This document shows, one piece after another, positions 19,374-43,810 of a stretch of DNA of 64,000 nucleotides. Source of the stretch: Escherichia coli (lineage in GTDB: Bacteria; Pseudomonadota; Gammaproteobacteria; Enterobacterales; Enterobacteriaceae); NCBI RefSeq assembly GCF_024223415.1, contig NZ_CP100500.1, one strand, 5' to 3'. Position 1 is the stretch's first letter. Every line of letters begins with the position of its first letter. A program made the translations under genes and the position numbers. The notes under the pieces are model-generated. The model did not search any database, was not told where the DNA came from, and saw only the letters and a list, made by a program, of their open reading frames with translations.

Positions 19374-19536
19374 AACGATAACTCCGTACATTTGAAAATT
19401 ATCGCCACCTTCAGGTTCCAATCATCATGGTGGCGAACTGTGCGGGGTTGGAACTACCGGGTACGGAAACCGGCGAGCCTTTCGGCTCCCCCACACAGCC
19501 CGCCATAAATCGCGAATGTGACTGTGCAAACGATAT

Positions 19537-19558
19537 GAAAAAAGACGCGGGCGCGTCT
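19537..19558 (-). terminator. Intrinsic-terminator-like hairpin on minus strand
   Basis: Minus strand: GAGACGC-gccc-GCGTCT followed by TTTTTT. Confidence 0.4.
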
Positions 19559-19843
19559 CATATCGCTCCGTAAACATCCGGGGTTCCAATCCCGACGCCA
19601 GATTTTGCTGACGCGTTGGAAATATAGCCCCGGAGGATAAAAACTGTCAACGGGTAAAAAATTTCCGTTATCAGGAATGTATAAAATTAAAGCAATCGAT
19701 CAAAAAATCCTTTCTGCAAAACTAAAAAAGATTTCAATAAAATCAGGCAGTTAAAAACGCTGAAAAACGGTATAAAAAAGCATCTCAAAATCCTGTTTTT
19801 TCTTTCAGATACAATATCTTATTTGATTTTTTAAAACCTGCCA

Positions 19844-28248: not shown

Positions 28249-28270
28249 TGTTATTCTCTAATTTTGTTCA

Positions 28271-28297
28271 AAAAAAAGCCCGCTCATTAGGCGGGCT
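28271..28297 (-). terminator. trp attenuator (3:4 terminator hairpin)
   Basis: Minus strand AGCCCGC-cuaauga-GCGGGCU followed by U7, between trpL and trpE. Confidence 0.85.
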
Positions 28298-28339
28298 GGG
28301 TATCTGATTGCTTTACGCATGGTGAATACACTGCCCGTT

Positions 28340-28384
28340 TCAGGAAGTGCGCCACCAACCTTTCAGTACGAAAATTGCTTTCAT
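28340..28384 (-). CDS. trpL: trp operon leader peptide
   Basis: Minus strand atgaaagcaattttcgtactgaaaggttggtggcgcacttcctga = [14 protein letters not shown], with tandem Trp codons. Confidence 0.9.
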
Positions 28385-40133: not shown

Positions 40134-40451
40134 TTTCTTGCGTTATTATCGGCACCTTTTATGTAGCGAAGGTGCCGTAATATATTCTCTTTTGTTACTT
40201 ATTTGTATACCGTGCACAATATTTTTATCCCTCATATTTATAGGGTAAATTACCTGTAAAGTAGTGTCTAATTACCCGCCTCGCAAACTCCAGTTTTCAA
40301 ATATCTATTTCAGGTCAAAAGATTGAATTATTCACTGAAGACGATTCGTAAATTCGCTGGATTTTTGACTAAAGTTTCTTTAGGATTTGTCTCATCGTAT
40401 GATTAATTACACCAATCGTTCAACGTCTTGCTGATAAGTGATGGCGATTAT

Positions 40452-40592
40452 ATGAGGTTAGCAATGCCTTCTGGAAATCAGGAACCCCGCCGCGATCCTG
40501 AATTAAAACGTAAAGCCTGGCTGGCGGTTTTTCTTGGTTCTGCACTTTTCTGGGTGGTTGTCGCACTGCTGATTTGGAAAGTGTGGGGATAA
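40452..40592 (+). CDS. ymiA: Small membrane protein YmiA
   Basis: 46-codon ORF MRLAMPSGNQEPRRDPELKRKAWLAVFLGSALFWVVVALLIWKVWG; could start at Met 5 (40464). Confidence 0.6.
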   Translation: MRLAMPSGNQEPRRDPELKRKAWLAVFLGSALFWVVVALLIWKVWG

Positions 40593-40594
40593 CT

Positions 40595-40762
40595 ATGGTT
40601 GGTCAGGAGCAACTGGAGTCGTCACCATTATGCCAGCATAGTGACAATGAAACAGAAACGAAACGGGAATGTACCGTCGTTATTCCAGACAACTGGCAAC
40701 TAACATCGCAGCAGCAAGCCTTTATAGAACTGTTTGCTGAAGATGATCAGCCGAAACAATAA
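40595..40762 (+). CDS. yciX: Small protein YciX
   Basis: 55 aa MVGQEQLESSPLCQHSDNETETKRECTVVIPDNWQ.., directly after ymiA. Confidence 0.6.
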   Translation: MVGQEQLESSPLCQHSDNETETKRECTVVIPDNWQLTSQQQAFIELFAEDDQPKQ

Positions 40763-40875
40763 TTATCATCATTCTTATTACCCATTTTTAATGAATTACA
40801 GGGCTTTTAATACACCGCAGCAATAACAGGTTGAGTTATCTCAACACAAAGTAATAACCGTTAAGGGTGTAGCCT

Positions 40876-40971
40876 ATGATCAACACAAATATGAAATATT
40901 GGTCCTGGATGGGCGCGTTTTCTCTGTCGATGCTCTTCTGGGCCGAACTCCTCTGGATCATTACTCACTGA
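40876..40971 (+). CDS. Candidate small membrane protein (31 aa, MINTNMKYWSWMGAFSLSMLFWAELLWIITH)
   Basis: Short hydrophobic ORF behind GGGTG, upstream of acnA; K-12 has small proteins here but I cannot confirm identity. Confidence 0.3.
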   Translation: MINTNMKYWSWMGAFSLSMLFWAELLWIITH

Positions 40972-41134
40972 TCCCTGACCCTGCTGCGGCGGGGTTTTCA
41001 TTTGCTTTGCCACAAGCTTTCTCCTCTTTTATCAATTTGGGTTGTTATCAAATCGTTACGCGATGTTTGTGTTATCTTTAATATTCACCCTGAAGAGAAT
41101 CAGGGCTTCGCAACCCTGTCATTAAGGAGGAGCT

Positions 41135-43810
41135 ATGTCGTCAACCCTACGAGAAGCCAGTAAGGACACGTTGCAGGCCAAAGATAAAACTTACCACTAC
41201 TACAGCCTGCCGCTTGCTGCCAAATCACTGGGCGATATCACCCGTCTACCCAAGTCACTCAAAGTTTTGCTCGAAAACCTGCTGCGCTGGCAGGATGGTA
41301 ATTCGGTTACCGAAGAGGATATCCACGCGCTGGCGGGATGGCTGAAAAATGCCCATGCTGACCGTGAAATTGCCTACCGCCCGGCAAGGGTGCTGATGCA
41401 GGACTTTACCGGCGTACCTGCCGTTGTTGATCTGGCGGCAATGCGCGAAGCGGTTAAACGCCTCGGCGGCGATACTGCAAAGGTTAATCCGCTCTCACCG
41501 GTCGACCTGGTCATTGACCACTCGGTGACTGTCGATCGTTTTGGTGATGATGAGGCATTTGAAGAAAACGTTCGCCTGGAAATGGAGCGCAACCACGAAC
41601 GTTATGTGTTCCTGAAATGGGGAAAGCAGGCGTTCAGTCGGTTTAGCGTCGTGCCGCCAGGCACAGGCATTTGCCATCAGGTTAACCTCGAATATCTCGG
41701 CAAAGCAGTGTGGAGTGAATTGCAGGACGGTGAATGGATTGCTTATCCGGATACACTCGTTGGTACTGACTCGCACACCACCATGATCAACGGCCTTGGC
41801 GTGCTGGGGTGGGGCGTGGGTGGCATCGAAGCAGAAGCCGCAATGTTAGGCCAGCCGGTTTCCATGCTTATCCCGGACGTAGTGGGCTTTAAACTTACCG
41901 GAAAATTACGTGAAGGTATTACCGCCACAGACCTGGTTCTCACTGTTACCCAAATGCTGCGCAAACATGGCGTGGTGGGGAAATTCGTCGAATTTTATGG
42001 TGATGGTCTGGATTCACTACCGTTGGCGGATCGCGCCACCATTGCCAATATGTCGCCAGAATATGGTGCCACCTGTGGCTTCTTCCCAATCGATGCTGTA
42101 ACCCTCGATTACATGCGTTTAAGCGGGCGCAGCGAAGATCAGGTCGAGTTGGTCGAAAAATATGCCAAAGCGCAGGGCATGTGGCGTAACCCGGGCGATG
42201 AACCGATTTTTACCAGTACGTTAGAACTGGATATGAATGATGTTGAAGCGAGCCTGGCAGGGCCTAAACGCCCTCAGGATCGCGTTGCACTGCCCGATGT
42301 ACCAAAAGCATTTGCCGCCAGTAACGAACTGGAAGTGAATGCCACGCATAAAGATCGCCAGCCGGTCGATTATGTTATGAACGGACATCAGTATCAGTTA
42401 CCTGATGGCGCTGTGGTCATTGCTGCGATAACCTCGTGCACCAACACCTCTAACCCAAGTGTGCTGATGGCTGCAGGCTTGCTGGCGAAAAAAGCCGTAA
42501 CTCTGGGCCTCAAGCGGCAACCGTGGGTCAAAGCGTCGCTGGCACCAGGCTCGAAAGTTGTTTCTGACTATCTGGCAAAAGCGAAATTGACACCGTATCT
42601 CGACGAACTGGGGTTTAACCTTGTGGGATACGGTTGTACCACCTGTATTGGTAACTCTGGGCCGCTGCCCGATCCTATCGAAACGGCAATCAAAAAAGGC
42701 GATTTAACCGTCGGTGCAGTGCTGTCCGGCAACCGTAACTTTGAAGGCCGTATCCATCCGCTGGTTAAAACCAACTGGTTGGCCTCGCCGCCGCTGGTGG
42801 TTGCTTATGCGCTGGCGGGAAATATGAATATCAACCTGGCTTCTGAGCCTATTGGTCATGATCGTAAAGGCGATCCAATATATCTGAAAGATATCTGGCC
42901 ATCGGCACAAGAAATTGCCCGTGCGGTAGAACAAGTCTCCACAGAAATGTTCCGCAAAGAGTACGCAGAAGTCTTTGAAGGCACTGCAGAGTGGAAAGAA
43001 ATTAACGTCGCACGATCCGATACCTACGGATGGCAGGAGGATTCAACCTATATTCGTTTATCGCCTTTCTTTGATGAAATGCAGGCAACACCAGCACCTG
43101 TGGAAGATATTCACGGTGCGCGGATCCTCGCAATGCTGGGGGATTCAGTCACCACTGACCATATCTCTCCGGCGGGCAGTATTAAGCCCGACAGCCCAGC
43201 GGGTCGATACCTACAAGGTCGGGGTGTTGAGCGAAAAGACTTTAACTCCTACGGTTCGCGGCGTGGTAACCATGAAGTGATGATGCGCGGCACCTTCGCC
43301 AATATTCGCATCCGTAATGAAATGGTGCCTGGCGTTGAAGGGGGGATGACGCGGCATTTACCTGACAGCGACGTAGTCTCTATTTATGATGCTGCGATGC
43401 GCTATAAGCAGGAGCAAACGCCGCTGGCGGTGATTGCCGGGAAAGAGTATGGATCAGGCTCCAGTCGTGACTGGGCGGCAAAAGGTCCGCGTCTGCTTGG
43501 TATTCGTGTGGTGATTGCCGAATCGTTTGAACGAATTCACCGTTCGAATTTAATTGGCATGGGCATCCTGCCGCTGGAATTTCCGCAAGGCGTAACGCGT
43601 AAAACGTTAGGGCTAACCGGGGAAGAGAAGATTGATATTGGCGATCTGCAAAATCTACAACCCGGCGCGACGGTTCCGGTGACGCTTACGCGCGCGGATG
43701 GTAGCCAGGAAGTCGTACCCTGCCGTTGTCGTATCGACACCGCGACGGAGTTGACCTACTACCAGAACGACGGCATTTTGCATTATGTCATTCGTAATAT
43801 GTTGAAGTAA
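41135..43810 (+). CDS. acnA: Aconitate hydratase A
   Basis: 891 aa, [29 protein letters not shown]. Confidence 0.95.

Follow-up and report, generated by a model that had tools for sequence, protein, structure and literature searches.

The 31-codon ORF upstream of acnA in Escherichia coli is very probably ymiC, a catalogued gene for a small membrane protein

Does the short ORF between cysB and acnA of Escherichia coli specify a protein, or does it belong to a regulatory leader, an sRNA or a mere intergenic spacer? The ORF occupies positions 40876-40971 (+) of the window, i.e., the 64,000-nucleotide stretch of E. coli DNA analyzed here (contig NZ_CP100500.1 of assembly GCF_024223415.1), and runs from ATG to TGA through 31 codons encoding MINTNMKYWSWMGAFSLSMLFWAELLWIITH, a peptide in which 4 of the 31 residues are Trp and 7 of the 31 are aromatic. 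An earlier note, made from the sequence alone, had described a 31-codon ORF in the cysB-acnA interval near ymiA and yciX, exactly as it is found here. The note suspected a genuine small protein of K-12, advised a comparison with the K-12 small-protein catalogue, and named missing ribosome occupancy and missing conservation as grounds against the ORF.

Identity of the ORF and selection on its peptide

The suspicion was well placed, in that the ORF at 40876-40971 (+) is very probably ymiC, a bona fide protein-coding gene that had been catalogued before. RefSeq places the "small membrane protein YmiC" (WP_001310756.1) at exactly these positions, as mapped from K-12 MG1655 and from Combat11I9, the locus of the latter being 100% identical to the window; the CDS (31 codons plus TGA) is that of a small single-pass inner-membrane protein. 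Its translation matches the NCBIfam equivalog NF041484 at 66.3 bits against a cut-off of 42 (E 1.2e-18) and the Pfam family PF23694 at 87.5 bits against a cut-off of 27, the latter over the full length (1-31 of 31). The YmiC protein of the window is identical to that of K-12, and the DNA differences between the two alleles lie outside the CDS only. More broadly, WP_001310756.1 is identical in five genomes with locus identities of 96-100%; even alleles at the divergent extreme of E. coli (~96% identity) carry this accession, as does a strain whose ymiA-yciX was replaced by IS1. A megablast search with window positions 40380-41140, from ymiA to the start of acnA, found the region in 5,421 of 5,426 complete E. 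coli genomes, and the DNA of the ORF itself is present at an identity of at least 95% in 5,421/5,426.

The gene has also been described in print. VanOrsdel et al. (2018; PMC6001520) named ymiC, located it between yciX and acnA and printed the exact 31-aa sequence, so that the catalogue comparison advised by the earlier note leads to an identical peptide. In the same work, chromosomally epitope-tagged YmiC was detected by immunoblot, and a ymiC signal was noted in an earlier tetracycline ribosome-profiling screen. Ribosome occupancy is therefore on record (PMC6001520; PMC11429745), and the ORF withstands this first ground for doubt. ymiC is already known, having been validated experimentally and carrying an annotation in virtually all E. 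coli genomes.

Conservation beyond E. coli was followed at both the protein and the DNA level. A phmmer search of 1.84 billion representative proteins returned only ten relatives of YmiC, all 27-63 aa long, and the contigs carrying the four most diverged homologues all show the order topA-cysB-ymiA-(yciX)-ymiC-acnA. Additionally, species-representative genomes were searched with a degenerate DNA pattern for K-Y-W-S-W-x-x-[AV]-F-x-x-S, which retrieved 94 stretches, nearly all of them from Enterobacteriaceae and distributed over ~20 genera; as the scan overlooked even the E. coli representative and yielded no locus from Salmonella or Klebsiella, absence from its list is not evidence of absence. 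The matches in Saprospiraceae, Fermentimonas and Flavobacterium are chance matches rather than orthologues, as they show no synteny and two of them have truncated ORFs only. A further match, labeled 'Terrisporobacter', stems from a 454-bp contig with a coverage of 1.3 in a Terrisporobacter mayombei assembly; its ymiC is identical to that of E. coli and its yciX nearly so (96%), and it most probably represents contamination of a Firmicute assembly by E. coli DNA.

The orthologues retrieved in this manner allow selection on the peptide to be examined. The distance from K7 to the stop codon amounts to exactly 25 codons in 88/88 usable orthologous loci. Since residues 7-18 are partly fixed by the search pattern, the selection tests rely on residues 19-31. 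Among 73 unique peptides, the unconstrained positions include W22 in 73/73, Q/E24 in 70/73, F21 in 68/73 and W27 in 58/73. Over codons 19-31, the entropy is 1.29, 0.61 and 1.35 at the first, second and third codon positions, respectively, and the pN/pS ratio, a pairwise estimate, is 0.25 for pairs of close relatives and 0.51 when all pairs, which are saturated, are taken together, compared with ratios of 0.95 and 1.63 when the same codon block is read in two shifted frames. In each of the five alternative frames, stop codons occur in 22-60 of 78 sequences. This pattern is the signature of a translated, selected peptide, and with an ORF conserved across ~20 genera the second ground for doubt named in the earlier note falls as well.

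Two Escherichia loci depart from this pattern. In Escherichia sp. MOD1-EC7003 the ymiC ORF starts only at an internal Met (26 aa) and carries the changes E24K and L25R; the contig ends soon after ymiC, with a hairpin that is partial and tail-less. In Escherichia whittamii a 20-nt deletion removes the Shine-Dalgarno region of ymiC. These changes may be signs of ymiC decay in some Escherichia lineages.

The YmiC protein and a possible membrane partner

The earlier note had described two Trp-rich hydrophobic stretches. The peptide is indeed rich in Trp and hydrophobic, but it holds one hydrophobic segment of ~21 residues instead of two; on the Kyte-Doolittle scale, the highest-scoring window of 19 residues covers residues 12-30 with a mean of 1.54. 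Trp residues are found near both ends of this segment (W9 and W11 at one end, W22 and W27 at the other). A 2025 preprint lists YmiC among 17 small proteins induced in low Mg2+ and reports that GFP-YmiC is seen at the cell periphery (PMC11429745). YmiC is a 31-residue protein with one Trp-flanked transmembrane helix that is made in cells and, according to the GFP fusion, located in the membrane.

The same preprint informs on the transcript from which YmiC is made. Induction of YmiC is PhoQ-dependent and driven by sequence upstream of ymiA, promoter activity immediately ahead of ymiC is negligible, and ymiC is likely cotranscribed as ymiA-yciX-ymiC (PMC11429745). Since the low-Mg2+, PhoQ-dependent induction comes from a promoter upstream of ymiA, ymiC behaves like the third and final cistron of a ymiA-yciX-ymiC mRNA.

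These properties recall other small proteins. MgrB, MgtS and PmrR share with YmiC the size class, the single transmembrane helix and PhoQ-dependent induction in low Mg2+. Their partners are known, namely PhoQ for MgrB, MgtA and PitA for MgtS, and LpxT for PmrR, whereas YmiC is without a known partner and without a phenotype, and its phmmer relatives are YmiC orthologues only. The preprint likewise groups YmiC with small membrane proteins linked to PhoP/PhoQ or to Mg2+ stress (PMC11429745). By analogy with these proteins, the helix of YmiC might pack against a larger inner-membrane protein and alter the activity or stability of this partner during Mg2+ limitation, a proposal that we put forward tentatively and rate at somewhat less than an even chance. 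The contact would be formed by the conserved residues W11, F15, S18 and W22 together with the membrane-embedded Q/E24. The proposal has to contend with the finding that neither deletion nor overexpression of ymiC caused a growth or morphology phenotype in low Mg2+ (PMC11429745), and a comparison with the PDB yielded no chain resembling YmiC and hence no structural hint at a partner. Conservation along one face of the helix, which was considered in this context, is partly an artifact, given that the search pattern fixed residues 7-11, 14, 15 and 18; it vanishes in the unconstrained half, i.e., the helical conservation moment of residues 19-31, which the pattern did not fix, shows no peak. A search against the PADLOC defense families returned no matches.

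The operon, its leader and its terminator

Within the broader cysB-acnA interval, ymiC is separated by 113 nt from yciX on its upstream side and by 163 nt from acnA on its downstream side. The first gene of the reported operon is ymiA (40452-40592 (+); RefSeq, NCBIfam NF000536, Pfam PF22868), the second is yciX (40595-40762 (+); RefSeq annotation), and the downstream neighbor is acnA, encoding aconitate hydratase A (41135-43810 (+); ORF and RefSeq annotation). This arrangement is retained among the loci with enough flanking sequence, where ymiA is found upstream of ymiC in 79/79, yciX in 78/79 and cysB in 72/73, with acnA downstream in 80/80 and a ymiC-to-acnA distance of 137-331 nt wherever it is measurable. 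yciX is weakly conserved (32-84% identity across genera) and falls much below ymiA (61-98%) and ymiC; no NCBIfam or Pfam model matched it, and the only match of YmiA in the PDB is a marginal one, to AmoD (E 0.04). In E. coli MEI008, an IS1 element has replaced ymiA-yciX and has left ymiC and the sequence just upstream of it intact, so that ymiC in this strain is without its reported operon promoter.

Upstream of ymiA, a scan for PhoP boxes, i.e., (T/G)GTTTA direct repeats with a 5-nt spacer, allowing up to three mismatches, found only 3-mismatch matches, at 40366-40393. Such matches are uninformative, as the whole window holds 172 of them against ~131 expected by chance. As this repeat scan yields no convincing PhoP box upstream of ymiA, direct control of the ymiC operon by PhoP rests on the reporter data of the preprint (PMC11429745).

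Other RNA elements were encountered elsewhere in the window. The Trp operon leader (Rfam RF00513, 93.1 bits) is located at 28270-28363 (-), as expected for the trp-topA-cysB-acnA region of the chromosome. At 19426-19614 (-), adjacent Rfam matches to C4 antisense RNA (78.9 bits) and isrK (72.7 bits) correspond to RNAs of prophage immunity regions, and in the 8 kb around them, similarity to lambdoid, Stx-converting and PPompW-type phages is only patchy, with coverage not exceeding 14%; this suggests that a prophage or prophage remnant occupies that part of the window.

The spacer between yciX and ymiC contains conserved elements of its own. A Shine-Dalgarno-like AAGGGTG (40863-40869 (+)), read from the sequence, ends 6 nt before the ymiC ATG, and a GGTGT or GGGTGT block aligns before the ATG in most genera. 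Further upstream, a near-invariant leader block, ATACACCGCAGCAATAA (40810-40826 (+)), was identified in an alignment of 91 sequences, its ACAC and CAGC positions being at least 90% conserved. Over 40810-40845 (+), the near-invariant ATACAC..CAGCAATA is followed by a hairpin that is conserved across ~20 genera in position and not in sequence. In E. coli this is the hairpin GTTGAG-TTAT-CTCAAC (40830-40845 (+)), part of the minimum free energy (MFE) fold; it occurs at the same offset in 84/88 distinct leaders with 54 different stem sequences, a median ΔG of -6.9 kcal/mol and a median z of -2.4 against shuffles. Leader block and hairpin may mark a processing site, stabilize the mRNA or weakly terminate transcription after yciX. 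A long-range leader helix that would sequester the Shine-Dalgarno sequence, drawn in the Rfam model discussed below, also appears in the MFE fold of E. coli, but this fold has a z of only -0.12 against shuffles, and the helix is 68.6% paired with essentially no compensatory changes; it is therefore regarded as unsupported.

Downstream of ymiC, a terminator scan identified an intrinsic terminator at 40977-41005 (+), with the stem GACCCTGC/GCGGGGTT, the loop TGCG and an interrupted T-run. The hairpin starts 5 nt past the stop codon and folds at -14.2 kcal/mol. Relative to K-12, the window carries a C-to-T change that turns a C-G pair of the hairpin into U-G and a G-to-T change that improves the T-run. 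Canonical intrinsic terminators, counted with a GC-core-trimmed scan since A/T-extended stems can swallow the T-run, are present in 71/88 distinct orthologous downstream regions, and in 76 orthologous regions the median distance from the stop codon to the GC core is 9 nt (IQR 9-12). Pairing in the stem reaches 92%, both partners have changed at 7/8 pairs, and RNAalifold on 91 sequences predicts this stem as the sole structure. The E. coli terminator is weaker, lacking an upstream A-tract and having its T-run interrupted. In a major E. coli lineage, a 14-bp segment corresponding to the 3' arm of the hairpin and the start of the T-run (40987-41000 (+)) is deleted; this deletion-type allele is carried by 1,143 of 5,420 complete E. 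coli genomes (~21%), with an identical YmiC. Similarly, Buttiauxella keeps ymiC and has no T-run after the hairpin.

The terminator presumably ends the ymiA-yciX-ymiC transcript, and in the simplest reading it insulates the P2 promoter of acnA. According to PMC2760140, which cites Cunningham 1997, the P2 start site lies at -50, which corresponds to ~41085 in the window, downstream of the ymiC terminator. The stretch from the terminator to acnA (41040-41134 (+)) is very conserved across the genera inspected, with ATCAATTTGGGTTGTTATCAAATCGTTACG...TGTGTTATCTTTAAT around the P2 promoter. The 5'-UTR from P2 starts with a hairpin, CCCTGA-N6-TCAGGG, and a second CCCTG copy could pair alternatively with the same CAGGG; the fold of this 5'-UTR is not significant against shuffles (z -1.06).

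Alternative readings of the locus

The closeness of stop codon and terminator raises the alternative that ymiC acts mainly in cis, as a uORF. A ribosome ending at the ymiC stop codon would occlude the 5' arm of the terminator, and translation would thereby set what share of the transcripts started at the PhoP-dependent ymiA promoter, or at a distal promoter of acnA, extends into acnA. The position of the GC core, within reach of a terminating ribosome, and the constant presence of acnA a short distance downstream agree with such a role. The sigma-S-dependent P1 start of acnA reportedly lies ~407 bp upstream of the gene, which would place ymiC in a long acnA leader. Additionally, Adams et al. 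(2021; PMC7815308) list ymiC-acnA among uncharacterized uORFs, with an RNA 3' end <200 nt downstream. However, the peptide is under purifying selection, accumulates and is located in the membrane, none of which a pure leader peptide needs, and many operons commonly finish with a terminator near a stop codon. Moreover, P2 gives acnA a promoter of its own beyond the terminator (PMC2760140).

Comparison with established leader systems is instructive in this regard. Like pyrL/pyrBI, mgtL and mdtU-mdtJI, ymiC is a short ORF ahead of a gene, in this case a metabolic one, followed closely by a terminator or RNA 3' end, and the terminator of the window follows the ORF after 5 nt, as expected of an attenuator. 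Unlike these systems, it shows no obvious regulatory codon run, and RNAalifold on the 91 sequences gave only the terminator and no alternative, mutually exclusive antiterminator pairing. A further difference is that YmiC is conserved over its whole length and builds up in the membrane. Nor does retention of the ORF depend on the terminator: ~21% of E. coli genomes dispense with the 3' arm of the hairpin and still have an identical YmiC, and Buttiauxella does without the T-run. For ymiC to be mainly a cis-acting uORF is therefore unlikely. A narrower version, in which the ymiC stop codon and the terminator form a translation-sensitive gate, such that efficient translation would permit PhoQP-driven read-through into acnA and the deletion lineage (~21%) would have made this link constitutive, is a shade more doubtful still; if true, it would link Mg2+ starvation to the supply of aconitase A.

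ymiC as a protein-coding gene also has to be set against an entry in Rfam. RF02079, 'STnc180 enterobacterial sRNA', matches the window at 40803-41005 (+) and covers the ymiC leader, CDS and terminator, with a score of 198.7 bits against a gathering threshold of 50 and all model positions aligned (1-208 of 208). STnc180 was defined from cDNA reads of an Hfq coimmunoprecipitation in Salmonella (Sittka et al., 2008; PMC2515195). The locus might accordingly be that of a noncoding Hfq-associated sRNA in which the ORF is incidental or, in a variant of this view, of a dual-function RNA that pairs with targets and also encodes YmiC. A full-length match far above threshold, the origin of the family in Hfq-bound reads, and a near-invariant leader block with a conserved hairpin that protein coding does not explain all speak for an RNA of this kind.

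Several observations oppose it. When the RF02079 consensus is translated from its AUG, the complete 31-codon YmiC results, and the terminal helix of the model is the ymiC terminator. Of the helices in the model, only the terminator and the inner leader hairpin (40830-40845) are supported, the terminator being the only one with covariation support in the alignment; the helices internal to the CDS were not recovered by RNAalifold on the 91 sequences, and the poorly paired long-range leader helix described above shows essentially no compensation. Nor does the sequence evolve as a noncoding one, judging by the invariant ORF length in 88 loci, the pN/pS of 0.25-0.5 and the stop codons in the other frames, i.e., by coding-type selection on an ORF whose protein has been detected (PMC6001520). 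The small transcript itself was not validated by Sittka et al. (2008; PMC2515195), who saw no STnc180 sRNA band on Northern blots and instead obtained signals of 500-2000 nt, 'likely processed mRNA species'. Collectively, this makes the sRNA reading very improbable, and its purely noncoding form is refuted by the detection of the protein.

STnc180, typed in Rfam as 'Gene; sRNA', most plausibly represents part of the ymiC mRNA, because the match spans the ymiC leader, CDS and terminator and the consensus encodes YmiC. Both names refer to the same locus and strand, with the model lying end to end over 40803-41005, yet STnc180 is classed as a noncoding sRNA gene while holding the conserved ymiC ORF. 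A link between STnc180 and ymiC is stated in no searchable paper. The sRNA typing of RF02079 can mislead automated annotation, as exemplified by a Shewanella study that gave STnc180 a role as a "stress response regulator".

Finally, a chance ORF in an intergenic spacer, without product, can be set aside with near certainty: an ORF alone proves nothing, because chance readily produces ORFs of such length (5.5 kb hold 93 with 20 or more aa), but ymiC is lifted above chance by conservation, coding-type selection and annotation, with family matches and literature pointing the same way, and the published immunoblot together with cross-genus conservation rules this reading out.

Beyond its identification in the window, the 31-codon ymiC ORF is here independently demonstrated, across genera, to be under selection at the protein level. 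The natural 14-bp deletion in the terminator additionally provides a ready-made test of whether PhoP-dependent transcription from upstream reaches acnA.
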